This document shows, in pieces, positions 2,985 to 60,986 of a stretch of 64,000 bases of DNA (its first letter is position 1; every line of letters begins with the position of its first letter). Origin of the DNA: an uncultured Gammaproteobacteria bacterium (lineage in GTDB: Bacteria; Patescibacteriota; Patescibacteriia; Magasanikbacterales; GWA2-37-8); contig CAYUHX010000001.1 in NCBI GenBank assembly GCA_964444705.1, positions 17,055 through 81,054 of the forward strand, given 5' to 3'. Both the position numbers and the translations under genes were made by a program. Under the pieces are notes generated by a model. That model worked only from the letters and a program-made list of their open reading frames with translations, was not told the origin of the DNA and searched no databases.

Positions 2985-3482
2985 TTATAAAAATAAATCT
3001 CGTTCCTTAATTTCATCTATCAGTGCGACATAGAATCCTGGGTTTTTTTGCCACGCTTCATAATCAGAATTCGTCACCAAGAATTTTAAATCAGTAGGAC
3101 TATACTCTTTCGTATTTCGAAACAACTCCCTCTGCACCTTATAGGTTTCACCTTTCCGTGCCCCGGACCCGTAATAGCGTGCAAAATCTTCTAACTCTTG
3201 TACCTGCGACAAAATCTCTATTGAACGGTCGACTGAATCTAACTCAGCCAAGAAAGCTTGATTCGACCCACTTTCCTCTCGAGAACTACTCGCATTATCT
3301 TTTCTTCTTGATCTAGAACTAATCGGAATAATATCAGCCAATGGCGCTGATGATTCATTGCCCGCAACCTCCGCTACGTTCTGACTTGTAAGCATTTGTT
3401 CTCTTTCACCCTGAGGATTTTTAGGAAAAAGATGGATTACTTCACCCATAGCATTATTTAATACACTCTCAAAAATAGACAC
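2985..3482 (-). CDS. hypothetical protein (165 aa); start may be the internal Met at 3449
   Basis: Open frame only. It overlaps the downstream gene by 25 nt if the first ATG is used. No recognizable motif. Confidence 0.4.
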   Translation of the reverse strand: MSIFESVLNNAMGEVIHLFPKNPQGEREQMLTSQNVAEVAGNESSAPLADIIPISSRSRRKDNASSSREESGSNQAFLAELDSVDRSIEILSQVQELEDFARYYGSGARKGETYKVQRELFRNTKEYSPTDLKFLVTNSDYEAWQKNPGFYVALIDEIKERDLFL

Positions 3483-23984: not shown

Positions 23985-24057
23985 GCGCCTGTAGCTCAGG
24001 GGTTAGAGCGCCACCCTTATAAGGTGGATGTCGATGGTTCAATTCCATCCAGGCGCA
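23985..24057 (+). tRNA. tRNA-Ile with anticodon UAU (TAT)
   Basis: Manual cloverleaf fold: 7-bp acceptor GCGCCTG/CAGGCGC, D-stem GCTC/GAGC, anticodon stem CCACC/GGTGG with loop CTTATAA (U33, anticodon TAT, A37), T-stem GATGG/CCATC with loop TTCAATT, discriminator A73. No CCA encoded. Candidate promoter TTGAAT-17-TAGACT about 60 nt upstream. Confidence 0.85.
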
Positions 24058-24083
24058 CATTTATTTTCTAATCACAGATTAAT

Positions 24084-31552: not shown

Positions 31553-34330
31553 CTATAAATACTTTGCGGTCCAACCTTTTTTGCGAGAGATAAGATCAGC
31601 CGGCGTACCAAAATCAACAATTTCACCACCACTCTCGCCTCCTTCAGGGCCAAGATCAATTACCCAATCACTGGAACGAATCATCTCCACATTATGCTCA
31701 ATCACAAGAACGCTATTACCTTTGTTCACCAAAGCATTAAGCACCTGGAGTAAGCGTTTAATATCTTCAAAGTGCAAACCTGTAGTAGGCTCATCCAGAA
31801 TATAAAGCGTTTTACCAGTAGAATGGCGCGCTAATTCTTGAGCAAGCTTGATACGCTGTGCCTCACCGCCTGAAAGGGTTGTAGCAGGTTGGCCAAGCTC
31901 AATATACCCCAAACCTACTTCACGGAGCACATTAAGCTTATCTGCAATCGCCGGAATATCACAAAAAAATTTAAACGCTTCTTCGACAGTCATCTTGAGC
32001 ACGTCGGCAATATGTTTGTTGTGATAATGCACTTCCAGAGCTTCTCGATTATACCGCCACCCACCACACTCATTACACTCCACATATACATCCGCCAAAA
32101 ATTGCATGGGAATACGAATATATCCATCACCACTACACGCTTCACATCGCCCACCACCCTTTACATTAAAACTAAATTTACCTGCATCATACGCACGCAT
32201 TCGTGCTTCTGGCAAAGACGCAAACAGATCTCGAATCAAATTAAAGATACCCGTATAAGTAGCCGGATTCGAACGTGGTGTGCGGCCAATCGGTGATTGA
32301 TCGATGGTAATCACCTTATCAATATGCGACAACCCCTGAATACTTTTGTGCGCCCCTGGCTCTTCTTTGGCGCGATAAAAATACTTAGCTAAGGCTTTAC
32401 TTAAAATATCGATAATTAATGTCGATTTACCCGATCCCGACACACCCGTAACACACACTAATCGACCAAGCGGAATATCGACATCAATATTTTTAAGGTT
32501 ATGAGCCGAAGCACCAGTAATCACAATTGACTTCCCCGTTCCTTTACGCACGACACGTTTTATAACCCCAATATTAGCTCGTCCAAAAAGATAGTCTGCC
32601 GTTAAAGAATCAGTTGATTTTTTAAACTCTTTAAGAGTGCCCTGTGCAATCACTTGTCCGCCATATACCCCGGCCCCTGGCCCCACATCAACCAAATAAT
32701 CGGCGGCGAGCATCATGGTGGCATCGTGCTCAACCACGATAACGGTATTACCCAAATCACGAAGATATTTAAGCGTTTCAATTAATTTTTGATTATCACG
32801 TGGGTGTAAACCAACCGATGGTTCGTCGAGCACATACACAATACCACTCAATCCCGAAGAGAGTTGCGTTGCCAAACGCACGCGAGTCACCTCACCGCCC
32901 GACAATGTATTCATGGCGCGATCAAGATTTAAATACCCTAAGCCTACACGCTCTAAATTTTCTAACCGCGGCACGATTTCACGAATAATCAAATCTGCCA
33001 CTTTTGAACTTTTTATTTCGCCTGTCAACACTCGTTTGACATCTTCCACATTCATCGCAGAAAAAGCCGAGATAGTATAATCTCCTAAACGTACGGCCAA
33101 CGACTCAGCCTTAAGACGTTTTCCTTGGCACACAGAACAAATTTTTTCTCGCATGTACTGCTCAATTTCTTTGCGCACATACTCAGAATTGGTTTCAAGG
33201 TGTTTGCTCATGAGATCGGGGATGACACCTACAAAACCAGTTTTCTTACCTTCAACGTCATACCATTCTTCGCCACTGCCATACAAAATGACATTCAAAA
33301 TTTTTGGTGATAAATCAACCACTGGAGTGTTGAGCGAAAAATTAAATCGATCGGCCACCGCTGCAAGAAGTTTGGTGTAAAAACTATGATTGCCGGTAAT
33401 ACGAGTCCAAGGCTGGATCGCACCTTCGGCTAAAGTAAGCCGTGCGTTTGGAATAACCAAACTCGCGTCAACCTCCATCGTCACCCCAAGACCAGTGCAA
33501 CGTGTGCACGCGCCATAGGGACTATTAAAACTAAAACTGCGCATATCAACCGGCGCCATGGTGCGACCACATTTTAAACAAATTCCCATGGTTGAACACA
33601 ATTTGTTTTTTTCTTCAGCCGAGAGCATCACCACCCCATTCGCAAGGTCAAGCGCACTTTCAATAAGCTTAGTAGGGTCTTGTTTTTTAATATCAGTAAT
33701 AGTGCCAATGAGTATCTCTACCGTGTAGAGGACATCTTTCTCAAACTGAAAATCAAGCAAATCGTTAATTTTAAAACGATTACCATTGAGACGCAACCAT
33801 TCAAACCCCGATTTTTCAATTCGCTCAAGTAATGATTTTTTTTCTATTTTTCCCTCGCGAATAAGAGGTGCATACACAGAAACTTCACCACTTTTACGGG
33901 CAAAACGACGTAATTCTTCCACAATTTCTCCACTCGTTTTCACCTCAACCGCCAAATGACATTCGGGGCAATACTGCTCACCCACGCGGGCAAAAAGCAA
34001 ACGCAAAAGATCATAAATCTCGGTTACGGTGCCCACGGTTGAACGTGGATTTTGCGTTGACATCTTTTGATCAATGGCGATAGTTGGCGATAAACCTTCA
34101 ATCGAATCGGCATCTGGTTTGTCTTGGGTTTCCATGAATTGTCGCGCATACGACGACATTGACTCCGCATAACGCCGCTGCCCTTCGGCATAAATAGTAT
34201 CAAACGCAAGACTCGATTTTCCTGATCCAGATAAACCAGTGATCACCACCAATTTATGCTTAGGAATTTCAATATCTACATTCTTTAAATTATGAACCCT
34301 GGCGCCACGAATTTTAATAGTGTCTGACAT
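31553..34330 (-). CDS. uvrA: excinuclease ABC subunit A (paralog 1, 925 aa)
   Basis: N-terminus [50 protein letters not shown]. Two ABC modules (second Walker [11 protein letters not shown]). Zn-finger cysteines. Confidence 0.92.
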   Translation of the reverse strand: MSDTIKIRGARVHNLKNVDIEIPKHKLVVITGLSGSGKSSLAFDTIYAEGQRRYAESMSSYARQFMETQDKPDADSIEGLSPTIAIDQKMSTQNPRSTVGTVTEIYDLLRLLFARVGEQYCPECHLAVEVKTSGEIVEELRRFARKSGEVSVYAPLIREGKIEKKSLLERIEKSGFEWLRLNGNRFKINDLLDFQFEKDVLYTVEILIGTITDIKKQDPTKLIESALDLANGVVMLSAEEKNKLCSTMGICLKCGRTMAPVDMRSFSFNSPYGACTRCTGLGVTMEVDASLVIPNARLTLAEGAIQPWTRITGNHSFYTKLLAAVADRFNFSLNTPVVDLSPKILNVILYGSGEEWYDVEGKKTGFVGVIPDLMSKHLETNSEYVRKEIEQYMREKICSVCQGKRLKAESLAVRLGDYTISAFSAMNVEDVKRVLTGEIKSSKVADLIIREIVPRLENLERVGLGYLNLDRAMNTLSGGEVTRVRLATQLSSGLSGIVYVLDEPSVGLHPRDNQKLIETLKYLRDLGNTVIVVEHDATMMLAADYLVDVGPGAGVYGGQVIAQGTLKEFKKSTDSLTADYLFGRANIGVIKRVVRKGTGKSIVITGASAHNLKNIDVDIPLGRLVCVTGVSGSGKSTLIIDILSKALAKYFYRAKEEPGAHKSIQGLSHIDKVITIDQSPIGRTPRSNPATYTGIFNLIRDLFASLPEARMRAYDAGKFSFNVKGGGRCEACSGDGYIRIPMQFLADVYVECNECGGWRYNREALEVHYHNKHIADVLKMTVEEAFKFFCDIPAIADKLNVLREVGLGYIELGQPATTLSGGEAQRIKLAQELARHSTGKTLYILDEPTTGLHFEDIKRLLQVLNALVNKGNSVLVIEHNVEMIRSSDWVIDLGPEGGESGGEIVDFGTPADLISRKKGWTAKYL

Positions 34331-42591: not shown

Positions 42592-43845
42592 CTAACGCTT
42601 TATTTTTCTCTTTGAACGATTAAAGGTAATTGCAAAACGATGTGCTTCATCACGCACACGAATGAGCGCCTCGCGATGGTGCGACACCCACGCCACGAGC
42701 GCCGGCTCCACACTCCCCAAAATAATATCGTTACGCTTTCGCTCTTTACCTTTAGCCAAACCTACTATGGGAATATCGACGTTTTTTGAACTAAGCACTT
42801 CTTTGGCACGATTCACCTGCGGTCGACCACCATCAATTAAAAAAAGAGTTGGCAACGGCCAATCAGCGTGTGCTAAACGACGATTCAACACCTCAGCTAA
42901 ACAATCTACATCACTCTGCCCCACTACTGTTTTAATGGTAAATTTTCGATAGGCTGCTTTAATTGGGCCATGCTCATCAGCAACCACCAAACTACCTACC
43001 TTGTCAGTGTCGCCCAAATTGGAAATATCATATCCTTCAATGCGATAATGATCTGCTTCATCGTTTGTCCCCGCGTGCTCTCTAAAAAATTCTTGATTTA
43101 AGAGAGCGACATCTTGAATACGATACAATGATTTTGATTGATCGCGCAGGCGCGCTGCTTCTTCAAAACGAAATTCTTTGGCTGCCAGCTTCATTTTATT
43201 TTCCCACTCTCGCACCAACTTCTTTTTTTCACCCTGTAAAAACAGCACCAGCGGCCGAATTACTTTTAACGCATAGTCGCGAGGACTAATTTCACCCGTA
43301 CAGACGCCCAGACACTCTTCCATCTGTCGATAGAGACAGGGCTTTAACGAAAGAGGTCGGCAACTCGAAAAACGAAATAATCGGCGAAGTAACTTCATGG
43401 TGGCCTTGGTATTGAGGCCAGGATACGGCCCGAACACATACTTGAAACCAGGCGGCACCTTTCCTTCTTCATGTGAAAGAAGACGCAGCTCGCGCTCACG
43501 AATAGTTTTCACCTGCGGATACAGCTCTTTCGTAATAATAATATAATTCCAACTTTTATCATCTTTACCAAGTACGTTGTATTTGGGTTGATTTTTTTTG
43601 ATGTACAACGCCTCTAAAATAATCGCCTCAAGCACTGATTCGGTTTCTTTCCACTCAATACGTGCCACCTCATGAATCATTTCTTCAATCGGCCGCGGCG
43701 TGCGTAGCCCACGAAAATAGCTTTGCACCCGGCTTTTAAGCGACGTTGCTTTACCCACATACACCAGCTCACCATCTTCAGAATAATACAAATAAATACC
43801 TGGGGCATCGGGTAATTTTTTAAAAACAGAATCAAATTTGTGCAT
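42592..43845 (-). CDS. uvrC: excinuclease ABC subunit C, compact form lacking the C-terminal (HhH)2 domain (417 aa)
   Basis: GIY-YIG N-terminus LPDAPGIYLYYSEDGELVYVGKATSLKSRVQSYF. UVR domain FRFEEAARLRDQ. RNase-H-like endonuclease domain RIEGYDISNLGDTDKVGSLVV...LIDGGRPQ. The frame ends before any helix-hairpin-helix pair. Confidence 0.85.
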   Translation of the reverse strand: MHKFDSVFKKLPDAPGIYLYYSEDGELVYVGKATSLKSRVQSYFRGLRTPRPIEEMIHEVARIEWKETESVLEAIILEALYIKKNQPKYNVLGKDDKSWNYIIITKELYPQVKTIRERELRLLSHEEGKVPPGFKYVFGPYPGLNTKATMKLLRRLFRFSSCRPLSLKPCLYRQMEECLGVCTGEISPRDYALKVIRPLVLFLQGEKKKLVREWENKMKLAAKEFRFEEAARLRDQSKSLYRIQDVALLNQEFFREHAGTNDEADHYRIEGYDISNLGDTDKVGSLVVADEHGPIKAAYRKFTIKTVVGQSDVDCLAEVLNRRLAHADWPLPTLFLIDGGRPQVNRAKEVLSSKNVDIPIVGLAKGKERKRNDIILGSVEPALVAWVSHHREALIRVRDEAHRFAITFNRSKRKIKR

Positions 43846-44270: not shown

Positions 44271-44375
44271 CCCGACGATGGTAATCTGCGCTTGAATTTG
44301 AAAGGAACAAGGATCAAGGAACAAAGAGCAATTTGTCCTTTTTCCTTCACTCGAACTCACATTACCATCGTCGGG
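44271..44375 (+). promoter_or_regulatory. 15-bp perfect inverted repeat (CCCGACGATGGTAAT ... ATTACCATCGTCGGG) enclosing a 75-nt purine-rich spacer, at the low-GC/high-GC junction just upstream of the high-GC lipoprotein gene
   Basis: Seen directly. The right arm ends 40 nt before the ATG, and a strong SD GAGGAGG follows. Confidence 0.4.
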
Positions 44376-44415
44376 CACTTGCGCCCGTCGATCCCTACGT
44401 CCTGAGGAGGACCGC

Positions 44416-45105
44416 ATGAACCGCATCCGTCGCAACTCGTTCCTGTCCCGCTACCTGCTGGCCGCCAGCCTGGCCGCCAGCCCGCTGACCACCGGCTGCG
44501 GCACGCCCGAGCCCACCACCCCGGTGGCACCGCAGCCCAGCACCCTGGCCAAGGTGAGCCGGAAGATCCCCGCCGACGGGGAGACCACGGGCCGGAGCCC
44601 GCTGGTGGGGGCGCTGCTCGACCGGCAGGTCACCGTCGGCGTCGCCAGCTTCACCATCACCCCCCACGCCGACGGCACGGCCAACGCCGAGGCCGGCGCC
44701 GTCTTCTGGAAGCCCAATGCGGAGCTGAAGGCCGGCCAGCGGTACGAGTGGACCATGGTCTTCAACGACCGCGGCTACGAGACGACCCTGAAGGGCAACT
44801 TCACCGTGGCCAAGGACCCCCCGCCCGCGCCGATGGGCCCCCTGTGGGGGCTCTCTGAGGGCACCCTGGGTGGGGCCACCAAGCAGTTCACCTGCAGCGG
44901 TACCCACGCCGGCCAGTACTACCTGACGGTCACCAAGGCCGGTGACGGCGCGCTGATCTGGGGCCAGAAGGTGGGCGGCTTCGGGCAGGAGTTCTACTAC
45001 ATCAACTCCCAGGACCTGGCGGCCACGTACCTCCAGACGGGCATCGTCTCGGGGATCACCTTCAGCGCCGAGGGCCTGCAGGAGGGTACCACCACCTGCA
45101 AGTAG
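44416..45105 (+). CDS. lipoprotein of unknown function encoded in a high-GC (about 70%) island
   Basis: SD GAGGAGG 6 nt upstream of the ATG. Signal peptide plus lipobox LAASLAASPLTTGC. GC3-rich codon usage unlike neighbouring genes. Downstream hairpin terminator at 45276-45312. Confidence 0.7.
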   Translation: MNRIRRNSFLSRYLLAASLAASPLTTGCGTPEPTTPVAPQPSTLAKVSRKIPADGETTGRSPLVGALLDRQVTVGVASFTITPHADGTANAEAGAVFWKPNAELKAGQRYEWTMVFNDRGYETTLKGNFTVAKDPPPAPMGPLWGLSEGTLGGATKQFTCSGTHAGQYYLTVTKAGDGALIWGQKVGGFGQEFYYINSQDLAATYLQTGIVSGITFSAEGLQEGTTTCK

Positions 45106-45275
45106 CGGCGCTGCCGCCCGACCCGCGGCGGCGCACACCGGCCATCAAATCGCTTGATCCACCGCTCCGTTCCGCAGCCCCCGCTCGCCTAAACCTGCTC
45201 GCCCACTTCGGTGCGAACAGCGGTGCGAGGGGGGCCTGCATCTGTTGAATAAAAGAACTGTCTTTTGTTCATAGA

Positions 45276-48038: not shown

Positions 48039-48202
48039 ACTATTTTAGTAATTAATGATTAAATTTATAGTACTATAATACCACAAAAACTGCATTTTGT
48101 CAAGCTAAAATTTAGCTAAATTTAGATAAAAATAGCGTACTGTTCGCAAATAAACACCCAAACCAGTGGACACTCCGCCCCAAAATGATAGACTACTTTT
48201 CT

Positions 48203-50281
48203 ATGCCTTTTAAACTTGTTTCTTCCTACCAACCATCGGGTGACCAACCAAAAGCCATTGATCAGCTTGTCTCTGGCTTAAAACAAGGGTTTAAAAAACA
48301 AACCCTGCTTGGTGTTACTGGCTCTGGCAAAACGTTTACCATGGCAAACGTGATTACCAAGCTGCAACGACCAACTTTAGTGATCGCTCACAATAAAACC
48401 TTGGCTGCCCAACTGTGCAACGAATTTCGTGAATTTTTTCCCGAAAATGCAGTGGAATATTTTGTCAGTTACTACGATTATTATCAGCCTGAGGCCTACA
48501 TGCCGCACAGCGATACCTATATTGAAAAAGAGGCGCAAATCAACCAAGAAATTGATCGCTTGCGCCACGCCTGCACCCAAGCCCTACTCACCCGTGAAGA
48601 TGTGATTATTGTGGCGTCGGTATCAGCCATTTACGGTTTGGGTTCACCAAAAGAATACGAACAAATCGTCCTCCACGTGCGCGTGGGAGAGCTCCTTAAT
48701 CGGCGCGACATGCTCGAACACCTCATCAGCATGCAATTTGAACGCACCAATCTTGAGTTAACCCGCGGCTCATTTCGCCTCACCGGCCAAGTGATTGAGG
48801 TAATGCCAGTCAACGAAGAAATGATTTATCGCCTCGAAATAGGCAATACTATTAATAACATTGAAATCATTGACCCAGTGACTCGTAAATTACGCCACAC
48901 CGTCAACGACGCCTGGTTCTTTCCTGCGAAACATTACGTCGTGGGCGAACAAGCAAAAGCGCACGCCATTGAAACAATTCAAACTGAATTGACGGAACAG
49001 CTGGCTGCCTTTGAACGACAGGGAAAAGTACTTGAGCATGAACGGTTAAAACGCCGAGTGAGTTATGATCTTGAACTTATTCGCAATCTTGGTTATTGCA
49101 ATGGCATTGAAAATTATTCCCGCCATTTTGATGGCCGCGCCGAGGGCGAGCCGCCGTTTAGTCTGCTTGACTATTTTACCCACGGTGCACGTACATTTCT
49201 CACCATTATCGATGAATCACACGTCACGTTACCCCAGCTTCGTGCGATGTATGCCGGCGACAGAGCCCGCAAAGAAACATTGGTTGAACACGGGTTTCGT
49301 TTACCAAGCGCCAAAGACAATCGTCCGCTCACCTACCCTGAGTTTGAAGCACGCACCGAAGGAGTGATATATGTTTCCGCCACACCAACTGAATATGAAA
49401 TAGCAGAAAGTGCCCAGGTGGTAGAACAGGTGGTGCGCCCCACTGGTCTTATTGACCCGGAAGTGCTCATCTGCCCCATCACTGGCCTCGGCAATCTTTC
49501 ACAAATTGAAGATCTTTTGGTGCGCATTGAGGCACGGATCAAAAAAAATGAACGTGTGCTCGTAACCACACTCACCAAACGTATGGCCGAAGACCTCACC
49601 GATTATTTACATGAGAAAAAAATTAAAGTGAGCTACCTTCACAGCGATATCAAAACTCTTGAGCGGGTGGAAACAATTATGAATTTACGCTTGGGAAAAA
49701 TTGATGTGCTGGTAGGTGTCAACCTGCTCCGCGAAGGCCTTGATATGCCTGAGGTGTCCCTCGTTGCCATTCTTGATGCGGATAAAGAAGGTTTTCTGCG
49801 CAGTGAAACCAGCTTAATTCAAACCATAGGCCGCGCGGCCCGCAATGTAAATGGGCAGGTTGTGTTGTATGCAGATCACTCCACTGGCTCGATTGAGCGA
49901 GCAGTGGCTGAAACGAATCGTCGCCGTGCCATTCAACTCGCCTACAATACGGAACATGGCATCACTCCGAAAACAATTGAAAAAACAATTCGAAATATTT
50001 TGGAAGAGTTTGGTATTTCTGAAAAGAATAAGGAGCATGGAACAAGGAACAAAAAAAACCACACACTCAGCACTACCGATCTCGATTTACTCGGCGATGC
50101 CAGACCACTTAAAGACATTATCAAAGACAAAGAGGCGCAGATGAAAGAAGCGGCGCGCACATTAGAATTTGAGCTGGCTGCAATTTTGCGTGATGAGGTG
50201 CGTGAACTCACTGCTCGACTTAAAACTGGCGAGAAAACGACTCATCAAAAAAAATCTACTCCCCGACGAAAAAAAATATGA
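48203..50281 (+). CDS. uvrB: excinuclease ABC subunit B
   Basis: N-terminus MPFKLVSSYQPSGDQPKAIDQLVSGL. Walker A TLLGVTGSGKTFT. Helicase motifs. C-terminal UVR domain LEFELAAILRDEVRELTARL. Confidence 0.92.
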   Translation: MPFKLVSSYQPSGDQPKAIDQLVSGLKQGFKKQTLLGVTGSGKTFTMANVITKLQRPTLVIAHNKTLAAQLCNEFREFFPENAVEYFVSYYDYYQPEAYMPHSDTYIEKEAQINQEIDRLRHACTQALLTREDVIIVASVSAIYGLGSPKEYEQIVLHVRVGELLNRRDMLEHLISMQFERTNLELTRGSFRLTGQVIEVMPVNEEMIYRLEIGNTINNIEIIDPVTRKLRHTVNDAWFFPAKHYVVGEQAKAHAIETIQTELTEQLAAFERQGKVLEHERLKRRVSYDLELIRNLGYCNGIENYSRHFDGRAEGEPPFSLLDYFTHGARTFLTIIDESHVTLPQLRAMYAGDRARKETLVEHGFRLPSAKDNRPLTYPEFEARTEGVIYVSATPTEYEIAESAQVVEQVVRPTGLIDPEVLICPITGLGNLSQIEDLLVRIEARIKKNERVLVTTLTKRMAEDLTDYLHEKKIKVSYLHSDIKTLERVETIMNLRLGKIDVLVGVNLLREGLDMPEVSLVAILDADKEGFLRSETSLIQTIGRAARNVNGQVVLYADHSTGSIERAVAETNRRRAIQLAYNTEHGITPKTIEKTIRNILEEFGISEKNKEHGTRNKKNHTLSTTDLDLLGDARPLKDIIKDKEAQMKEAARTLEFELAAILRDEVRELTARLKTGEKTTHQKKSTPRRKKI

Positions 50282-50910: not shown

Positions 50911-51022
50911 ATAGGCACCTTGCAATGGAAGATATGTATTTTTCTGAGGGCGGTTGGAGTTTTGAATAAACCCCAACCGCCACGATGAATGGCATGCCGA
51001 CCCTCCGAAGAGAAGCCGGCGC

Positions 51023-51406
51023 TCACGAGGCGGCCTCCATGCTGCTGGTGGTAACGACCGGCGGCGCGGCCTCGTGGCGAACAGGCAGATGAGCGATGGC
51101 CGGCGGCGCGGCGGCGCGCCGCTTAGCCTCGTCGCGAAGGAAGTTGTCGGCCTGCACCCAGAGCGGTACGCCGATCATAAGGCCAACCCAGAGGCCGAGA
51201 CCACACCAGAACGCCCCAGTCATGGTGGCGTCGATGCCTAGCCCCAACTCGGGAACAATTTCGTTGTCGAGCTGGGTAGCTCGAATGAGATAGGCAAGCG
51301 CCCAGAGGACAAGTACCCACCCGATGACGGTAATGAACTGACCGATCGTCCTTTGGATCTTGGCCCGCGAACCGTTCTCGATCCGGATCATGTCTTTGAT
51401 CTTCAT
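51023..51406 (-). CDS. small two-TM membrane protein encoded in a high-GC (about 60%) island
   Basis: Hydrophobic helices VIGWVLVLWALAYLI and GAFWCGLGLWVGLMIGVPLW. Ala/Pro-rich tail. Composition differs sharply from its flanks. Confidence 0.5.
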   Translation of the reverse strand: MKIKDMIRIENGSRAKIQRTIGQFITVIGWVLVLWALAYLIRATQLDNEIVPELGLGIDATMTGAFWCGLGLWVGLMIGVPLWVQADNFLRDEAKRRAAAPPAIAHLPVRHEAAPPVVTTSSMEAAS

Positions 51407-51536
51407 CTCAAACTCCTTTCTAAGTTCTGCGAAGAGCGTCTCCTCGCCACCACGCTGGTGACGAACGCTCTACTCTTCACGAACTATTGTCAAAGAACAA
51501 AAAAGGATACTACAAAATTGAGTGACATTATACTTT

Positions 51537-53303
51537 TTATGCGCCAAAGAAATTACTCAATCGTTTCAATATTGTAGGCTTAGTTCGATTAAGATATTCT
51601 TGATCCTTGGCATGCTGATATAACTTAGCCGTTAAAAGAGAAAAAAATTGCGGCACATCCACTGTTTTATCTTTTTTATTGATAATTGGAAGATTACTCC
51701 AGTCGGCATCATATAACCCTAATTTCTTTCCAAGTTTCTCGGCTTTCACACCACCCGCTGCCAACACCTTAAGATTTTCCACAATGTTGTGTGAATAAAT
51801 GCTCGCTTCTGGCACCACCTTAACTACCGCGTCGGTAAGGACATGTTCGAGGTGACGACCGTTTCCCCAACGATATATCACCGAAGTATTTTTCTCTGTT
51901 GGTGCGACCGCCGTCTTTTTTGTCATCTCAGATGTTGAAGGTTGTGAATCGACTTGATCTCTGTTGCTTTGTAGCAACTCTTTTGCTCTCTTAACCTCTT
52001 GCGCAATATCGTTATCGCCTTTAAAAAGACCAGAATTTTTAAGAATGGCTTTAAACGAATCTGGGGCGTCTTCCTGTGGTGCCAAGGCTTTTTTTATTCC
52101 TTTCACAGCGTGTACCACGGCTGGATTTTCGGTTACTTGGCCTCGATGCTCATACGCAAATACGCCCGCAAATAAACCGGCAACCAGGCCAGCAGTTTGT
52201 TGCAGTCGTTTAAACACACCCTGCTTCTTTCGTGCGCGTTCTCGTTGTTGATAAACCGAAATGGCCGCTCGCTGAATCTGCGCAATATTTTCTTCATTAT
52301 CAAGCAATATCGCGTCTGGAACAGGCGCAGTAACATTCTCTTCTTTGACAACACTTACTTCTTGTTCTTTAGTCGGTTCTTCGAAAGGAGCCTCAATAAC
52401 AATATTTTCTACCTCAAGCGCAGCGAGCTCTTTAACGTCTTGGTTCGCAATTTCTGTCGCTGCCGGTGGCAACTGATCATTATCTACCAACCCAACCGAA
52501 GCGTGCTGTTCGTCTAAGAAAGACACTGCTGGCTCCCTTGCCAAAATGTTGGCTTCTTTTTCGGCAAAATTCTTAAGAGTTCCCTCAGCCTGGCTCATTT
52601 CTTCTTCAGCGGCAACCTGTTGAATTGTTTCATAGGCAATGTGTACTAGCCGACGCTGAACAGCCTGCACCAGCTCAGCAAATTTAGTTGGGTGCATAGT
52701 TCTTGCCAAGGCTCGCTGAACACCATCGGCTTCAGTATAAAGTCGACTAACAACTGCCGAAGCTGAACCGGTCTTTACCGACACTTGTTGAAAAAGATCA
52801 ATGAATTGGCGCACGATATCAAGGTGATGGCCAAGCTCAGTAGTGATATCAGTTCGCAATCGTGCATCAACTGCACTCAAGGCTTTAGAAAGTTTCATTT
52901 TGTCTGTGCCGCTTTGGTTATGTTTCTTTTTAAGAAGTGTTATTTCTGCTGCATAGGCACTCACCAATTCACTCACACCCTGCACTAGTTCCGCTGCATA
53001 ACGCAATTGAGTGGCATCAACAACTTTGTCTTGTTGCAATGCTTTTATCAATCGTTCTGGGCCTGAGAACAGTGCCGCAAAATATTCTTGATGTGCTCGT
53101 GGCGCATCAAGATATTCTTCTTGCAACTGCGGACCCTTAATCGGACGGGCAATTAAAACAATTTCTTTACGCACCTGGGCCAAGCTTTCTGCAATGGCTT
53201 TTAATGTATAGTTTTTTTCTTCTCTTTTTAAATCAACTACCTCACCAAGAAACCTGTTACGGGATTCAGAAATAGGCATATACATTGAATATGTTTTACA
53301 CAA
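51537..53303 (-). CDS. hypothetical alpha-helical protein (588 aa; alternative start at 53279)
   Basis: Long open frame with one hydrophobic segment (TAGLVAGLFAGVFAY). No recognizable domain. Confidence 0.5.
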   Translation of the reverse strand: MCKTYSMYMPISESRNRFLGEVVDLKREEKNYTLKAIAESLAQVRKEIVLIARPIKGPQLQEEYLDAPRAHQEYFAALFSGPERLIKALQQDKVVDATQLRYAAELVQGVSELVSAYAAEITLLKKKHNQSGTDKMKLSKALSAVDARLRTDITTELGHHLDIVRQFIDLFQQVSVKTGSASAVVSRLYTEADGVQRALARTMHPTKFAELVQAVQRRLVHIAYETIQQVAAEEEMSQAEGTLKNFAEKEANILAREPAVSFLDEQHASVGLVDNDQLPPAATEIANQDVKELAALEVENIVIEAPFEEPTKEQEVSVVKEENVTAPVPDAILLDNEENIAQIQRAAISVYQQRERARKKQGVFKRLQQTAGLVAGLFAGVFAYEHRGQVTENPAVVHAVKGIKKALAPQEDAPDSFKAILKNSGLFKGDNDIAQEVKRAKELLQSNRDQVDSQPSTSEMTKKTAVAPTEKNTSVIYRWGNGRHLEHVLTDAVVKVVPEASIYSHNIVENLKVLAAGGVKAEKLGKKLGLYDADWSNLPIINKKDKTVDVPQFFSLLTAKLYQHAKDQEYLNRTKPTILKRLSNFFGA

Positions 53304-53308
53304 ATTTT

Positions 53309-54073
53309 TTAACTACGCGCAATCGTCTGATCTTCATAAGCTCCAAGATCATCGGATGCATACATATCACGCAGCATAGTATACGGCGCTGCAACAAGCT
53401 CGTCGATCGACATCGCATCAATCTGACGTTTTATTTTTTCTTTTTGCAAAGCTTCAATCAATGTTATGTAGTGCAATCGCCACTCACGAATCACATCAGG
53501 AAACGAAAATAAATCATTTTTTTTACCAAAATCTTCAGGCGAATAACTACTAATATCCTTTTGGAGCGCATTCGCATGACGCATCATTTTTTGCCACGCC
53601 CCGTGAGATAAAGATTTCAGACTGCTCTCTGAAACAGTTTGAAGTAACGCTTTGGTATAACGAACGGCGTTATCAAGCACGTGTTTTCGAAACAACAATC
53701 GCCGCGTATGGATCTCATGCTCTTTTTGAGTAACCACTTTTTCATTTTCCGTTTTGAGAGCAGATTGTCTTGCTGCAAAAAGCGTTTCAAGCTCGCGTAA
53801 CTGGTTGGCAACTACGCGGTGGGTGCCTTTGATATGCTGCAGAAGTTCTCTTGTTTGGTGAGGGGTAATTCCTTCTTTAGCGAACACATGCCTGCTCACC
53901 ATGTCTTCAAGCGGCCAAATAACGACGATACAGTCATCTTTATCTTCTTGTGACACTCTGGCAGTTTGAATTATTCTTTTTAAATCGCCTAATTTTTCTG
54001 CTAACGAAACATTTTTTTCAGCTGCGGCAATTGGTTCTGAATGTTCTCTTGTTTGAGCGTGAACATTGCGCAT
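53309..54073 (-). CDS. hypothetical alpha-helical protein (254 aa)
   Basis: Open frame tightly spaced with the upstream gene on the same strand. Confidence 0.5.
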   Translation of the reverse strand: MRNVHAQTREHSEPIAAAEKNVSLAEKLGDLKRIIQTARVSQEDKDDCIVVIWPLEDMVSRHVFAKEGITPHQTRELLQHIKGTHRVVANQLRELETLFAARQSALKTENEKVVTQKEHEIHTRRLLFRKHVLDNAVRYTKALLQTVSESSLKSLSHGAWQKMMRHANALQKDISSYSPEDFGKKNDLFSFPDVIREWRLHYITLIEALQKEKIKRQIDAMSIDELVAAPYTMLRDMYASDDLGAYEDQTIARS

Positions 54074-54491
54074 GTCACACTGATTATTATTCTATGTACA
54101 AAAAGTATAGCACAAAAAACCCAATCAAACACGGCCCGAGCGATATCCCAACTTCTCCATCTCTCTTTTTAAAAAGAGAGGTAGAAAAGCTGACCGACGG
54201 CACCCGAAACCAACTGCTGTTGGTGGGTGCCGTCGCTGTGTGTACTCCTAACAAACAAAAACGAAATGGATCAGACCACTGTAGCCTGCTCCGCGATCAG
54301 GGCGCGGAGTTCTGCGGCGTCTTTGGCCGCGGCGCGGATCTGGAGCTCCTCGAGCCGCTGGTGCCGCCGCCGCGTCGACCGTCGCACGAAGTTCTCCCAA
54401 TATCGCGGAAGCCGCTCGGGCGGCTTGGGCGCCGCTGGCGCCGCCGCTTTCGGCAACACCCGGTTGAGCCAACGGAGGTTGACCCAAAGGA

Positions 54492-56240
54492 TCACTGCCG
54501 ACACCAGGCACAACCCCACCAGGAGGAGGAAGAACCAGTGGTGGGGCCAGGGCTTCCAGAACCTCCCGAGCGCGGCGCGAGCTTGCTGACCAGCGCCAGC
54601 CCCATGGGGGACAGGCACAGCTCAGCCAGGGTGACGACGAAGTAGCTGCTGATGAGCCAGAGCGGGCTCACTCGGCCAGAGTTGCCACCGGCGAGCGAAC
54701 CCACCACCATGATCAGGTACGAGATGGCCGTAAGCACCATCCCAATGCCGATCTTGGCTGCGGTGGACGGCTGACGGCCGCGCTTCTCGAGGAAGACTCC
54801 GAAGAACCAGTTGAGAACTGGCGTCAGAGTCACGACGAAAAACGGGTTGACGCTATTGTAAACAATAGCGCCGGGCTTCCAGCCGAGGATGCTCTCGCGG
54901 GTGTGGTCGTCGGCCCAGAAGACCAAAACGCTGCCGTTCTGGTGAAACGCCGCCCAGAAAAAAATGACAATCACACAAATAACACTGATCGCGAGGATCC
55001 GTAGACCCTCGACGAGCGGCGGCTCGCGCGCGTCTTCGTATTCCTTGGGCAAGGGGACCCCAAGGACGGCCGCGACACTCGATCTCTGATCCGCCAGCTT
55101 GAACCAGCGGTAGCACGCGGCGGCGATGACGAAGCCGACCATCATGCCGACACCGGCCGCCGAGAATGCCGCCGCCCACCCGTAGTGCGCCACCATGTAG
55201 TCGGCAACAAAGGGGCTAAAAAATGCCCCAATGTTGACGCCCATGTAGAAGACGCTGAAGGCAGCGTCCCGCCGCGAATCGCCGGCGGGATACATGTTCC
55301 CCAGCATCGTCCCGATGCTGGGCTTGAACATGCCGTTCCCCAAGACGATGAGAATGATCGCCGTCCAGAGAAACTTGGGAGGAGCGCCGAGCGCGAAGTA
55401 GCCCACGGCCATGAGGGCCGCGCCGAAGAGCACCGCCTTCCGATAGCCCAGCCACCGGTCGGCGATGATGCCCCCGAAGAACGGGGCGAAATAGGTCAAC
55501 GCGATGAAGCTCCCATACGTACTCGAGGCTTCGGCCGCCGAGTACCCCAAGTGCTTCTTGAGGTACAAGGTGAAAATGGCCAGCATCAGGTAGTAGCCGA
55601 AGCGCTCCCACATCTCGACCATAAAAAACGCGTAGAGCTGACGCGGGTGCCGGGGACCAGAGGAGCGGCGGGTCGCGAGCTTGCTGAGGAGGCGAGCGAT
55701 CGGACGGAATGGCCAGTTCCGCCTGGTCACGGCCCAGTCATCGGCTAAGAGCCAACTCCAATACCGGAGCTCCGCCATGAGCTCGCCGATCCAGGGGTGC
55801 GCCTTGAGGAAGCGCGCCCGGCGGTAAGCCGCGATGCGAGCCTGCTGCGCCCTCCTCTCGGCGCGCTCCGCCTGCCGAATGGCGTTGATGCGGGCCGCGC
55901 CATCACGGCGGATCTGCTGGGCACGCTCGAACGCAGCGAAACGCGCGAGAAGCCGCTGCCACGGGGGCGACACGCCCGAGTGGACCAGCGCGTACGCCGC
56001 CCGCCCGGCGGTGAAAAACCAGAAGATGGCGGGCGCGACGAAGTTGAAAAACTCACGGGCCGGCGGGGCAAGCCGCTGCCGAACGGCGTCCACGGTCGCG
56101 AGCACGCGCCGTTTGACGCTGGCGAACGTCGCGGCCACCACGGTGAAAAATGCGATGATCTTGAGCACCACCCGCTCCTCGATGAGAAGCTGCGGAGCCG
56201 TCATAGTTGCCTTGGCCTGGATCGGACGCTTTCTCTTCAT
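54492..56240 (-). CDS. POT/PTR2-family proton-dependent oligopeptide transporter in a high-GC (about 65%) island, with an about 190-aa N-terminal extension and a probable 3' frameshift (continuation likely in frame 54271-54618)
   Basis: PTR2 signature FFMVEMWERFGYYLMLAIFTLYL, GGIIADRWLGYRKAVLFGAALMAVGYFALG and LAELCLSPMGLALVSKLAP. After KLAP the frame degenerates (SGGSGSPGPTTGSSSSWW) while the overlapping -frame reads a plausible TM (HHWFFLLLVGLCLVSAVILW). Confidence 0.7.
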   Translation of the reverse strand: MKRKRPIQAKATMTAPQLLIEERVVLKIIAFFTVVAATFASVKRRVLATVDAVRQRLAPPAREFFNFVAPAIFWFFTAGRAAYALVHSGVSPPWQRLLARFAAFERAQQIRRDGAARINAIRQAERAERRAQQARIAAYRRARFLKAHPWIGELMAELRYWSWLLADDWAVTRRNWPFRPIARLLSKLATRRSSGPRHPRQLYAFFMVEMWERFGYYLMLAIFTLYLKKHLGYSAAEASSTYGSFIALTYFAPFFGGIIADRWLGYRKAVLFGAALMAVGYFALGAPPKFLWTAIILIVLGNGMFKPSIGTMLGNMYPAGDSRRDAAFSVFYMGVNIGAFFSPFVADYMVAHYGWAAAFSAAGVGMMVGFVIAAACYRWFKLADQRSSVAAVLGVPLPKEYEDAREPPLVEGLRILAISVICVIVIFFWAAFHQNGSVLVFWADDHTRESILGWKPGAIVYNSVNPFFVVTLTPVLNWFFGVFLEKRGRQPSTAAKIGIGMVLTAISYLIMVVGSLAGGNSGRVSPLWLISSYFVVTLAELCLSPMGLALVSKLAPRSGGSGSPGPTTGSSSSWWGCAWCRQ

Positions 56241-56540
56241 GAGCGACCTCGCATGATTATTTATTTCCGTTGTTCAAAGAGGGTTAACTCATCTGCCACA
56301 CCGGCAGCTGAGCCCTCTCCTCTTTGCCAACACTTTTTGACCCACCCAAGGCGGACGAGAGTTAATTCTCCGTAGCTTTTTGTTACGAGACTTCCAATCA
56401 ACACCTCGTCAGTTCTACTGCGAGGTACTTCATTTGTAAAGAACAGATACAAAATAAGCGCACCGATGTTTTCCGTACGCCTTATCTATACTGAACGTAG
56501 CACAAAAACGACCAAAAGTCAATGGTCTTAAGGTACAAAA

Positions 56541-56575
56541 AAAGCCCACTTTTTAAGCAAAAAATGGGCCCAGAC
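56541..56575 (-). terminator. rho-independent terminator downstream of the 324-aa hypothetical gene
   Basis: Minus-strand reading GGGCCCATTTTTTGCTTAAAAAGTGGGCTTTTTTTG. Confidence 0.5.
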
Positions 56576-56587
56576 GTTTATGTTGCC

Positions 56588-57562
56588 CTACTCATCACGC
56601 AGCACTTTCCTCAGTCGATCTGCTTCGTCCTCATTCGCTTGAGTTGTTTCTAAAAGATCGAGATATTCTTTCCACACGGTGGCTCGCTCTTTATTTACCC
56701 TATTGCGTAATCGATTCCCAAAAGAAATAAATGCCGATGGTTCGTTCAACTCTTTTGCAGCAACACCCAAGCGAAGCAGCAACTGGTCTTTTAAAAAACC
56801 TAATTGTGAATTATTTTGTGCAATAACCTCCTCAAGCTGGCTAATTTGTGACTCTACAACATCACGAGGGGTTGACCTGCCCTCAACCTTTAAATCATGA
56901 TTTTTCGAAAGCGGTTCATCCCAGGCTGATCGGGTCGCACTTACGTGCGATGCTTTGACTAACGATTGACGCTCAAGCGCAGCATTTTCTCGCTGCAAAC
57001 GCTGCATATTCGCCTCTTCTTTTTCTGCGTTGCGCTTAATTTCCGCTTCCAATTCTGCGCGCTGCCGTTTTTCAATCACTTCATTTCTTCTTTTTTCCAT
57101 TAACTCATCCATTGCCACCGCATTTTGTTTTCTATACGCCCGCCTCTCTTCTTCTGTTAAATTCGGTGGAAAATCAATGCCATCAACTGGCTCCGTCAGT
57201 TGCGTTGCTTCATTCGTTAAATCTGGCACACCATCACTACTTTCATCAACTGGCGACACCAATTTCGTCTCAGCACCCAAAACAACTTCCGGAGAAAACA
57301 TATCTGTAATCCGAACTGGGGAAACGCCACTTGGAAACGAGGGATCTAATCTAGCGCGACCCTCGACATCACGCGATTTTTGTACCCTCGTCCGCAACTC
57401 TTCTAAACGAATCAGATCTTCTGGCTTCAAATTACTTTGCGCAAATGAAAGTGGTATATCTAGCCACTCTACCAGATTTGCATCTGTTAACCTTCCATTT
57501 TCTTCAAAATGATTAACTAATTTTTCTGGCACATGCCCCCCTGATGAAACATTTTCTCCCAT
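56588..57562 (-). CDS. hypothetical coiled-coil protein (324 aa)
   Basis: Glu/Arg-rich heptad-like stretch (EERRAYRKQNAVAMDELMEKRRNEVIEKRQRAELEAEIKRNAEKEEANMQRLQRENAALERQ). Confidence 0.5.
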   Translation of the reverse strand: MGENVSSGGHVPEKLVNHFEENGRLTDANLVEWLDIPLSFAQSNLKPEDLIRLEELRTRVQKSRDVEGRARLDPSFPSGVSPVRITDMFSPEVVLGAETKLVSPVDESSDGVPDLTNEATQLTEPVDGIDFPPNLTEEERRAYRKQNAVAMDELMEKRRNEVIEKRQRAELEAEIKRNAEKEEANMQRLQRENAALERQSLVKASHVSATRSAWDEPLSKNHDLKVEGRSTPRDVVESQISQLEEVIAQNNSQLGFLKDQLLLRLGVAAKELNEPSAFISFGNRLRNRVNKERATVWKEYLDLLETTQANEDEADRLRKVLRDE

Positions 57563-57731
57563 ATAACTATGTAAGAAATAAAAACATGTTTATGCTAACA
57601 TAAATAAACGCAAAGTCAATTAAGGTTTGACAAAAAAAATACACCGAGTTAAGCTAATTTTACTTCTTCTCTACGAAAGATGAGGCCCCGCCGTGGGCTT
57701 TTTTAGATTCGTACGACCTACTTATATTTTT

Positions 57732-60407
57732 ATGGATAAAATTACCATTAAAGGCGCCCGAGAACATAACCTAAAAAACATTTCTCTTGAGCTGCCACGC
57801 AACAAAATGATTGTGTTTACGGGTTTGTCTGGTTCGGGAAAATCAAGCCTCGCGTTTGATACTATCTTTGCCGAAGGTCAGCGTCGCTATATTGAAAGTT
57901 TGTCCGCCTATGCGCGGCAATTTTTGGGTGGTATGCAAAAACCTGATGTGGATGAAATCGAAGGCTTGTCCCCCGCTATTTCTATTGACCAAAAAGCGCA
58001 TAGTGCAAACCCGCGTTCTACGGTGGCCACCATCACCGAAATCTACGATTACCTGCGCGTGTTGTTTGCTCGCGTCGGCGCACCACATTGCCCCATCTGT
58101 GGCACCAAAATAGAAAAAATGACTATCGATCAAATGATTGAACGAATAGTGAAAGGAATAAAAAATAAAGACAAAGAAAAAAATGTATTAACCATTCTTT
58201 CTCCCATAGTCCGCGGACGCAAAGGTGAATATTACCAATTACTCTATGACACCTATAACTCTGGCTACCTTGAGGTGCGCGTTGATGGCAAAATAAAAAG
58301 TCTGCGAGAAAGAATTGTCTTATCAAAAAACAATGCGCACACCATTGAAGTTATTGTCGATAAAATTCCATTAAAATTTGACGAAAAAAATCTAAAATCA
58401 AAAACTACTACACCGCTATCAGAAGATGATTCCCAACGCCTCACCGAAGCAGTACGTTCGGCCACCGATCTTTCAAACGGCCTTTGTACAGTCATTTACC
58501 CCAGCGGTGAGGAGCAGGTATACAGCACCGAATATTCCTGCCCCAACGATGGGTTTAGCTTCCCAGAAATTGAGCCGCGCTTGTTTAGTTTCAACAGCCC
58601 CTATGGCTACTGCGAAGCCTGCACCGGCCTTGGTACCAAAGAACTTTTCAGCACCGAAATATGCACCGTCTGCCAAGGTAAACGTCTCAACAAAAATGCA
58701 CTTAGTGTAAAAGTGGGTACCAAAAACATTTGGGAAATCACCACGCTCACCATTAGTGATGCGCGCGAATTTTTTGCCGCAGTCGACATGGAGCTGAGCG
58801 ACACTGAGCGAGAAATTTCTGGTGCAGTGCTTAAAGAAATCGGCAATCGTTTACAATTCATGTTTAATGTAGGTTTGCATTATTTGAGTCTCAACCGCAA
58901 AGCCGGCACTCTCTCGGGTGGCGAGGCGCAACGCATTCGCCTCGCGTCGCAAGTGGGCACCAAACTCGTCGGTGCGCTTTATGTGCTCGACGAGCCCACC
59001 ATTGGACTCCACCAAAAAGACAATGACCAGTTGGTGAAAACGCTTCGCAATCTCTGCGATGTGGGCAACACCATCATCGTGGTGGAGCACGACGAAGACA
59101 CCATTCTTGCGAGTGATTGGCTCGTTGATTTTGGCCCGGGCGCCGGAAAGCATGGTGGCGAAGTGGTGTATTCTGGTCCACTCACCACACTGCTCGAAAC
59201 ACGCAACGACACGAATGTAAAAAAATCTACTGCCCGCGCGCTTGGTGCGACTGTGGCTATCCCAAAGAAAAAAAATTCTGAAGACCTGGTTGGTCAAACC
59301 GCCTTTCACTGCGCTCTTCAAGGCAGTGCCCTCCAGTCGCTCACTGGGCAGTATTTGCGCGGTGAAAAAACCATCGCTATTCCAGAAACACGGCGCAAAG
59401 TTGATTCCGCGACACCAAAAATAAAAATCAAAGGCGCCAAAGAACACAACCTTAAAAACATCACCGTTGAAATTCCACTCCGACGTTTGGTGTGTCTTAC
59501 CGGCGTCTCGGGATCGGGCAAGTCAACCCTCATGCATGATATTTTGCATGAAGCGGTAACGAATAAATTTTTCCGCACGAGCCGAGTCGTCGGCGCGCAC
59601 CAAGAAATTACCGGCCTTGAATATATTGATCGCATGATTACCATTGATCAATCGCCGATCGGCCGTACCCCCCGCTCTAACCCCGCAACATATACCAAAG
59701 CTTTTGATATCATTCGCGACTTATTTTCTTCCACCGCCGAAGCCAAAATCCGCGGCTTTAAAAACGGAATGTTTAGCTTCAATGTCCCCGGTGGACGCTG
59801 CGAGCACTGCGAAGGACGTGGCACACTCGAAATTGAAATGCACTTCTTGCCAAGTGTAGAAATTGTCTGTGATGTGTGCCGAGGAAAACGTTTTACTCAA
59901 GATGTGCTTCAAATTCATTACAAAGAAAAAAATATTTCTGAAGTTTTGAGCATGACCGTCGAAGAAGCGGAAGAATTTTTTCGCGACGTTCCTCTCATTC
60001 ATGATAAATTAAAAATGCTGAAAGAAGTGGGTCTTGATTATCTCACGCTTGGGCAATCAGCCACGACGCTTTCAGGCGGTGAAGCACAACGCATCAAGCT
60101 CTCGAAAGAACTTTCTAAATACGGCACGAGCAAAACACTCTACCTCTTGGACGAACCCACCACCGGTCTCCACTACGAAGATGTACGCAAATTAGTGGAT
60201 GTACTCCAACGCCTGGTTTCGCAAGGCAACACGGTGATGGTGATTGAACACAATCTTGATGTGATCAAATCTGCCGACTGGATTATTGATCTTGGCCCAG
60301 AAGGTGGTGACAAAGGGGGTCAATTAGTTGCCACTGGCACGCCCGAAGAAGTAGCTAAAAAAAGTGGCAGCGCCACTGGGCATTATTTAAAAAGACTTCT
60401 GAAATAA
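57732..60407 (+). CDS. uvrA: excinuclease ABC subunit A paralog 2 (UvrA-like, about 892 aa)
   Basis: N-terminus [65 protein letters not shown]. Second ABC module [18 protein letters not shown] signature LSGGEAQRI twice. Cys clusters. Confidence 0.88.
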
Positions 60408-60494: not shown

Positions 60495-60915
60495 CGCTCA
60501 TAACAGGTAATCGCCCCGACGTAAAGTCGGGGAGGAAAGTCCGAACACCCTACCCTCCGCCTCGTGCGGAGATTGAAAAAGGTAGTGGGTAACACCCACC
60601 CTTTGTTTCGTGAGGAGCAAGGCGGGACAGTGGCACAGAGACAATACTAACCAGTGCTTGGCACTGGCGAAAGGTGAAAAGTGTGAGGAGGTAAAAAATC
60701 TTCGGATTTCTTGCCACCCCACTCCTCGGCTGGCAACAGCCGAGTGTGCTAAACCCTACCTGGTGCAAGAGCAGCCCCAAATTCCCTTTATGGAATTTGT
60801 CGGAAAAGTTCGCTCGCACAGATTCCGTCAGCAATGCCGGAGCCAGAGAAATGATTACCACTCCCCCATCTAAAAAATGGTGGAGCACAAAATTCGGCTT
60901 ATCGTTATGAGCATC
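60495..60915 (+). ncRNA. rnpB: RNase P RNA (bacterial type A-like)
   Basis: Conserved P4 5' strand GGAGGAAAGTCCGAACAC and 3' strand ACAAAATTCGGCTTATCG, with compensatory CCGAA/TTCGG changes relative to the common CCGGG/CCCGG. P1 closing helix GCTCATAAC...GTTATGAGC. GGTAACACCC (P10-P12 region) present. Only short spurious ORFs overlap. Confidence 0.85.
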
Positions 60916-60986
60916 CTAAAACCTCTCTTCCTCAGAGAGGTTTTAGTTTGACGATGAACCGCTTTAGGCATAAAATAGCTCGTACT

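Follow-up and report, generated by a model that had tools for sequence, protein, structure and literature searches.

A foreign POT/PTR2 transporter gene, probably inactivated, in a high-GC islet of a Patescibacteria genome

A stretch of 64,000 nucleotides from contig CAYUHX010000001.1 (the window) belongs to a Patescibacteria genome and carries on its minus strand, at 54271-56240, a high-GC islet formed by a single gene of the POT/PTR2 family of peptide transporters. The observations described below make it probable that this is a foreign gene, recently acquired and since inactivated, and that the islet now holds a pseudogene rather than a working importer. The horizontal acquisition of the gene by its Patescibacteria host is well supported because its composition, its phylogenetic placement and its absence from the same interval in related genomes all point to it. 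A reading made from the sequence alone had proposed such an acquisition, and to this extent it holds. It had also proposed that the gene gives the host an adaptive peptide importer. That part is not supported, as a deletion of about 70 nt has cost the gene transmembrane helix (TM) 11 and shifted its frame, and it no longer has the canonical start codon.

Composition and boundaries of the islet

The segment 54230-56260 has a GC content of 63.8%, compared with 44.1% in the remaining window and 44.7% in the window as a whole. In sliding 2-kb windows the mean GC fraction is 0.447 with a standard deviation of 0.037, and every non-overlapping 2-kb block outside the islet is at or below 48.8%. The span of the POT gene itself is 64% GC. 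By maximum likelihood the GC content changes at 54284 and 56230, and these points coincide with the limits of the one minus-strand gene, namely its original stop codon at 54271-54273 and its ATG at 56240. The GC fraction at the third codon position (GC3) is 0.82 over the span of the gene (0.82-0.85 within it) and 0.35-0.48 in nine host genes, which include both immediate neighbors. The adjoining open reading frames (ORFs) have GC fractions of 0.42-0.44 and no family match. Both strands of the islet carry numerous overlapping artefact ORFs, as is usual in DNA of high GC content.

The sequence-only reading had described about 2 kb of about 65% GC with sharp edges near 54230 and 56260, set between low-GC hypothetical genes and crowded with overlapping artefact ORFs. 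The measurements confirm this description, and GC3 too sets the gene apart from host genes.

The POT core

The ORF at 54492-56240(-), which encodes 582 residues, matches Pfam PTR2 (PF00854) with an E-value of 7.6e-48 and 163.8 bits (cut-off 27) and TIGR00924, 'oligopeptide:H+ symporter', with 241.3 bits (cut-off 130.2). Its EMWERFGYY, encoded at 55590-55616(-), is the ExxERFxYY motif of TM1, as defined in PMC4331665. The core also carries FGGIIADRWLGY, GNGMFKPSIG, FYMGVNIGAF, FWAAFHQNG and AELCLSPMGL, and all of these except FWAAFHQNG were seen to fit invariant columns in an alignment of 48 homologs. The PTR2-1 and PTR2-2 signatures, the TM4 Lys and the TM10 Glu are present. By tblastn, the core is 55-57% identical to the homologs P0002, P0003, P0008 and P0012. 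In the AlphaFold (AF2) model the predicted local distance difference test score (pLDDT) is mostly 85-98 within the core, and the 50 best Foldseek matches in the PDB are all structures of the POT family or of related peptide transporters, with PepTSt, DtpA and GkPOT in the lead.

These features place the encoded protein in POT/PTR2, the family of the proton-coupled di/tripeptide symporters. The core of 12 helices characteristic of the major facilitator superfamily (MFS) is incomplete: 23 codons of TM11 are gone, and TM12 is out of frame. The locus is POT-derived by sequence, motifs and fold, but 'functional POT' would be the wrong annotation for it. Of the earlier description, a POT/PTR2 transporter with EMWERFGYY spanning about 2 kb, the family and the motif stand and the extent does not, for the in-frame core occupies only about 1.1 kb and is interrupted near 54570, and a further 0.6 kb or so belongs to an orphan N-terminal extension. 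The earlier description mentions neither the interruption nor the extension.

Loss of TM11, of the reading frame and of the start codon

Compared with all close homologs, the gene lacks 23 codons and 1 nt (about 70 nt). The missing stretch corresponds to RMTAMMMGVWFLATAIGNKLSGE, which is essentially the whole of TM11 and includes the conserved Trp of MGxWF. In the protein alignment the homologs read KLAPR-RMTAMMMGVWFLATAIGNKLSGE-IGIFWK, and in the window KLAPR is followed at once by (L)GRFWK, which continues in another frame. The closest homologs accordingly give two high-scoring segment pairs in different frames by tblastn, one from RHPRQLY to SKLAPR (55652-54570) and one that starts with GRFWKPWPHHWFF and extends from 54567 downward. 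Codon composition places the switch in the same region. A single coding phase with GC3 of 0.8-0.9 runs from 56240 to about 54590, after which the high-GC position changes phase until 54271.

The longest translatable product is the 582-residue protein, which ends after TM10 and 25 out-of-frame residues (SGGSGSPGPTTGSSSSWWGCAWCRQ). Beyond the junction, the 3' remnant remains recognizable in the shifted frame: it contains one TM segment, is 40-52% identical to the C-termini of the homologs and has a GC3 of 0.85 in its own frame. TM11 contributes to the peptide-binding site together with TM1, 2, 4, 5, 7, 8 and 10, and TM10 and TM11 pack against TM4-5 to form the intracellular gate (Newstead review, PMC4331665). 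As TM11 thus belongs to both the binding site and the gate, a product that lacks TM11 and TM12 would, judging from the established mechanism, be incapable of alternating-access transport.

The beginning of the gene is altered too. The close homologs (433-466 residues) begin with M-x-x-[RK]-HP, and at this position the window reads SSGPRHP. ATG, GTG and TTG are all absent between the N-terminal extension, which precedes the core, and the first internal Met, located just ahead of VEMWERF. The canonical start is therefore lost, and the POT core can be translated only as a fusion to the 196 upstream codons, starting from the ATG at 56240. Frame disruption and the loss of an essential segment, by which pseudogenes are recognized, are both found in this gene, in the form of the deletion with its frameshift, the premature stop and the missing start. 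The coordinates of all these features are collected in Table 1.

Table 1. Features of the islet and its surroundings (window coordinates; AF2, AlphaFold)
Feature	Position	Strand	Basis or remark
Whole high-GC islet	54271..56240	-	Single foreign gene: N-terminal extension, POT TM1-10, deletion/frameshift, out-of-frame TM12 and tail
Orphan N-terminal extension (aa 1-196)	55653..56240	-	In frame with POT; GAGG 6 nt ahead of ATG
POT/PTR2 core TM1-TM10 (aa 197-557, RHPRQLY...SKLAPR)	54570..55652	-	tblastn, Pfam, TIGRFAM, AF2, Foldseek
Deletion junction	54565..54572	-	About 70 nt lost relative to all close homologs, with frame shift; alignment, tblastn, GC3 phase
Premature stop of the POT frame	54492..54494	-	After 25 out-of-frame residues; ORF list
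3' remnant in shifted frame: GRFWKPWPHHWFF... (TM12), tail of about 60 aa, original stop	54271..54567	-	Homology, GC3
Two strong hairpins, terminator-like	54149..54235	-	Just downstream of original stop; GC-rich 54195-54235, AT-rich 54149-54192
Terminator-like hairpin and T-run	56542..56571	-	After upstream low-GC gene
Lineage-specific insert	50911..57692	.	6.8 kb between DUF218 gene and uvrA; comparison with relatives

Origin of the gene

The host itself is a Patescibacteria bacterium, that is, a member of the Candidate Phyla Radiation (CPR). The window is bacterial, with a class A RNase P RNA at 60495-60917 and one tRNA, and its UvrA (57693-60407) is 71-74% identical to UvrA of metagenome-assembled genomes (MAGs) labelled Magasanikiibacteriota or Parcubacteria; a few MAGs under other labels match at the same level. 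The organism with a reduced genome assumed by the sequence-only reading is consistent with such a host.

The relatives of the POT gene lie elsewhere. In a search of 5.8e9 proteins, the best non-self matches are 57% identical POTs of 433-466 residues labelled Myxococcota, Myxococcales or Polyangia, and none of the 120 best matches is a CPR-labelled sequence. The loci of these Myxococcota-type homologs are 67% GC, with a POT GC3 of 0.81-0.93. In neighbor-joining trees of POT sequences, the window protein joins a set of 21 sequences that contains all the Myxococcota-labelled proteins (96 of 100 bootstraps) and branches at or near the base of this set. As the identity is only 57% and the branching is basal, the donor would be an unsampled high-GC lineage.

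Comparison with related genomes shows that the interval occupied by the gene is variable. In four Patescibacteria loci (L085, L086, L088 and L089) uvrB directly abuts uvrA, and in three others (L001, L003 and L087) the order is uvrB-DUF218-uvrA. In all eight related loci compared (L001, L003, L085-L089 and L095) uvrB(-DUF218)-uvrA is contiguous and a POT gene is found nowhere in the locus; these relatives are distant, with UvrA identities of 59-74%.

Several other origins were considered and rejected. A phage origin finds no DNA match in the phage collection, nor do the flanking orphan genes have relatives among viruses. The plasmid collection contains only short matches to POT motifs and no close DNA match. 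In one further locus (L084) a POT gene (P0017) does adjoin uvrA, but this is a coincidence, for that genome is 50% GC, the GC3 of its POT is 0.37 and the gene orientation differs.

Horizontal gene transfer into Patescibacteria, including that of single transporter genes, has been documented (PMC12455944; PMC8080830), and 126 such genes were reported for Vampirococcus (PMC8080830). The present case resembles the published ones in that a single membrane or transport gene has entered a streamlined CPR genome from a non-CPR donor. It differs from them in its extreme, unameliorated GC3, its ORF-tight edges and the inactivation of the gene. Very recent transfers from unsampled donors escape the method of the published survey (PMC12455944). 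Since the foreign fragment is essentially unameliorated, the transfer was probably recent.

By combining these observations, a probable course of events can be described. A Patescibacteria genome would have taken up a single gene from an unsampled high-GC bacterium, whose nearest sampled POT relatives are of the Myxococcota type. The gene, a POT/PTR2 symporter fused to an orphan N-terminal extension of 196 residues, would have been inserted between uvrB-DUF218 and uvrA, where the gene content varies. After the transfer, or shortly before it, the deletion would then have removed TM11 and shifted the frame, and thereby inactivated the gene.

Relation to known POT transporters

The closest known proteins are the short Myxococcota-type POTs (P0002-P0016, for example MCS6914432.1, 'peptide MFS transporter'), which have the same motifs and similarly high GC and GC3, and with which the window protein forms one clade at 55-57% identity over TM1-TM10 and 40-52% over TM12. 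Unlike them, the window copy lacks TM11, is frameshifted and has lost the canonical start; it also has the extension in front and a tail that is longer by about 60 residues. The loci of the homologs contain DUF179 and ATP-grasp neighbors, and neither is found beside the window copy, which lies in a Patescibacteria genome of 44% GC. Judged by its length, the clade looks like a 12-TM form. In most characterized bacterial POTs, TM6 and TM7 are separated by two additional helices (HA/HB).

With the characterized transporters PepTSt, GkPOT, DtpA and PepTSo (TC 2.A.17) the window protein shares the MFS/POT fold (Foldseek E-value about 1e-16, 26-32% identity). The characterized bacterial POTs are longer, with chains of about 430-510 residues, and the window copy keeps only TM1-10 in frame. 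As the ExxERFxYY motif, the TM4 Lys (FKP) and the TM10 Glu are common to both, the ancestral mechanism would have been proton-coupled di/tripeptide symport (PMC4331665).

The N-terminal extension

The 196 residues that precede the POT core are 68% GC and have a coding-like composition, with GC fractions of 0.67, 0.54 and 0.84 at the first, second and third codon positions (GC1, GC2 and GC3). GC3 phase by itself does not distinguish the sense frame from one of the antisense frames; the former is assigned because GC1 exceeds GC2, because the translation contains hydrophobic helices and because it continues into the POT frame. One strong and one weaker hydrophobic helix are followed by a very basic region rich in Arg and Ala (39 Arg and Lys, 12 Asp and Glu). 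AlphaFold predicts a helical structure with pLDDT values of 37-87.

The extension matches no family in Pfam, PHROG or NCBIfam. An exhaustive HMMER search over 1.84e9 representative sequences returned only the protein itself and two weak, low-complexity matches with E-values of about 1e-4. A word-indexed search found no homolog; it also missed the self match, so that this is a weak negative. The DUF179 gene upstream of POT at the closest homolog loci is unrelated to the extension.

Two possible derivations from POT sequences were considered. A circular permutation, in which the N-terminal helices would replace TM11-12, was rejected because the similarity is no better than that of shuffled sequence. 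The only signal for a degraded tandem POT copy is the weak similarity of the last 30 or so residues of the extension (about 95 nt) to the end of TM10. This region contains one copy (55668-55687) of a direct repeat with 18 of 20 nt identical (TCAGCAAGCTCGCG...), situated 8 codons ahead of the start of POT homology. The other copy (54570-54589) lies at the end of TM10, on the left edge of the deletion. An alignment of about 95 nt of DNA around the repeats scores 36, where randomly paired segments of the islet score 19.3 +/- 3.7; at the protein level the similarity is weak. The repeat is perhaps the trace of a rearrangement, or else due to chance.

Alternative explanations

Several points weigh against a recently acquired and inactivated gene. 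The nearest homolog is only 57% identical and the gene branches at the base of that clade, so that no particular donor is indicated. A mechanism of insertion is not apparent, for neither an integrase or transposase nor a tRNA target or flanking direct repeats are found, and this account gives no reason for the N-terminal extension. Over its 1.97 kb the gene contains no further stop or frameshift, and all the conserved POT motifs are intact up to TM10. With this single lesion, the gene may have worked until very recently, or it may still work in sister strains. Finally, the deletion itself could be an artefact of the assembly or a minor variant.

The last point leads to the alternative that the gene is a working acquired importer, its POT intact and joined to a novel N-terminal domain, and that the 70-nt gap is an error of assembly or consensus or a minority allele. 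The intact motifs and the lack of further lesions would fit this, as would the recognizable TM12 and tail with their coding-like GC3. A GAGG that precedes the ATG and strong hairpins that follow the gene (RNA folding energy -60.2 kcal/mol, z -8.2) would fit it as well. Against it, the hairpin and T-run that follow the upstream gene imply that the islet gene would need its own promoter within 56241-56541, and a scan of this interval finds no sigma-70-like match. Moreover, neither short-read nor long-read assemblers often make a clean internal deletion of 70 nt in unique sequence, and if a sequence error of 1 nt is assumed to restore the frame, 23 residues, or nearly all of TM11, are still gone. 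A working importer is therefore an unlikely explanation.

It is less likely again that the high-GC segment comes from another organism by chimeric assembly or binning contamination. The contig is of the MAG type, the protein is found on a single NCBI contig of 139 kb, and the compositional jump is extreme. However, the segment is internal, with the Patescibacteria genes uvrB and uvrA on its two sides, and its edges match one ORF and its hairpins. Two precise false joins would be needed, and this three times over in the window, which has two further islets of the same kind. Similar GC3-rich islets of a single gene also occur in independent assemblies of related MAGs (L001, L002, L004 and L089), and their recurrence makes misassembly less likely.

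The least probable alternative is a truncated fusion of two N-terminal helices with POT TM1-10 that has been neofunctionalized and now serves, for example, as binder, channel or host-interaction factor: the count of 12 helices with a consistent topology, the coding-type codon-position GC of the extension and the envelope-type orphan proteins of other islets speak for it, but the N-terminal helices do not resemble POT TM11-12, the out-of-frame tail SGGSGSPGPTTGSSSSWWGCAWCRQ looks accidental, and no homolog of this architecture is found among the 1.84e9 representatives.

The acquired and inactivated gene thus remains the probable explanation. The gene itself is of little import, being a disrupted copy from a well-known transporter family, and transfer into CPR genomes was already documented. 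As a marker, the islet points to physical proximity between a Patescibacteria lineage and a high-GC, Myxococcota-like organism. It also gives reason for caution, for a domain match alone is no basis for assigning peptide-import capacity, and the intactness of the gene needs to be checked.

Other high-GC islets

The recurrence of GC3-rich orphan islets across the clade is a more intriguing lead than the POT gene. Two more ORF-tight islets are located in the window. The first, at 44369-45240, is 70% GC and contains an ORF at 44416-45105(+) with a GC3 of 0.97. The encoded protein of 229 residues has a lipoprotein-like signal peptide with a lipobox-like LTTGC; it matches no family in Pfam, NCBIfam or PHROG and has no database homolog. 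A 25-nt inverted repeat (44271-44295 and 44351-44375) lies just upstream of this ORF. The second islet, at 50971-51482, is 62% GC, and its ORF at 51023-51406(-) encodes an orphan membrane protein of 127 residues with two hydrophobic segments and a GC3 of 0.77. It occupies the left margin of the lineage-specific insert, where it converges with the DUF218 gene and has a hairpin in common with it.

The related MAGs contain four such islets in about 190 kb of loci: L001 21197-21472(-), L002 15600-15914(+), L004 1921-2499(+) and L089 6050-6571(-). Their GC3 is 0.87-0.94 in genomes of 39-48% GC, and all are orphans with no significant Pfam match. The islets that were compared (those of L001, L004 and L089) are unrelated to one another and to those of the window. 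Each islet is flanked by short GC-rich stretches, resembling untranslated regions, within AT-rich host DNA.

This recurrence suggests frequent or repeated uptake of high-GC DNA, followed at the POT locus by decay. A bolder idea is that these ORF-tight and mostly orphan islets (GC3 0.77-0.97) result from the systematic capture of DNA by an episymbiont from its high-GC bacterial host. Several islets of the window do encode lipoproteins or small membrane proteins, and the idea is best regarded as a doubtful though not negligible one. If it were true, the POT gene, as the sole islet with recognizable homologs, would be the fingerprint of a Myxococcota-like host, and candidates for host-interaction factors would be found in the orphan envelope genes.

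The islet of L004 adjoins a gene for a bAvd-like protein at 2999-3424(-) (PF22296, E-value 4.9e-10), next to which an ORF at 3299-3694(+) resembles a reverse transcriptase and has no Pfam match. This neighborhood may be that of a diversity-generating retroelement.

Genomic surroundings

Besides the POT islet and the islet at 50971-51482, the lineage-specific insert contains three low-GC orphan ORFs at 51537-53303(-), 53309-54073(-) and 56588-57562(-). These are rich in charged residues and coiled-coil-like on visual inspection. Searches for family and PHROG matches and for viral or close database relatives found none for these ORFs, two of which form singleton clusters.

The uvr genes of the window are rearranged (42592-43845(-), 48185-50281(+) and 57693-60407(+)). 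In the relatives uvrC directly follows uvrA; in the window it is on the strand opposite to uvrA, some 14 kb upstream, and the first islet and ftsW separate it from uvrB. There are two UvrA-like paralogs, one of 925 residues at 31553-34330(-) and one of 904 residues at 57693-60407(+). The longer one matches the UvrA DNA-binding domain, and the copy adjoining the POT islet does not show this match.

The sole tRNA gene in the 64 kb, at 23985-24058(+), encodes tRNA-Ile with the anticodon UAU, which is an uncommon means of decoding AUA in bacteria. At 4729-11565(-) the window encodes a surface-type protein of 2278 residues with CarboxypepD_reg and Big_5 repeats and a C-terminal peptidoglycan-binding domain.

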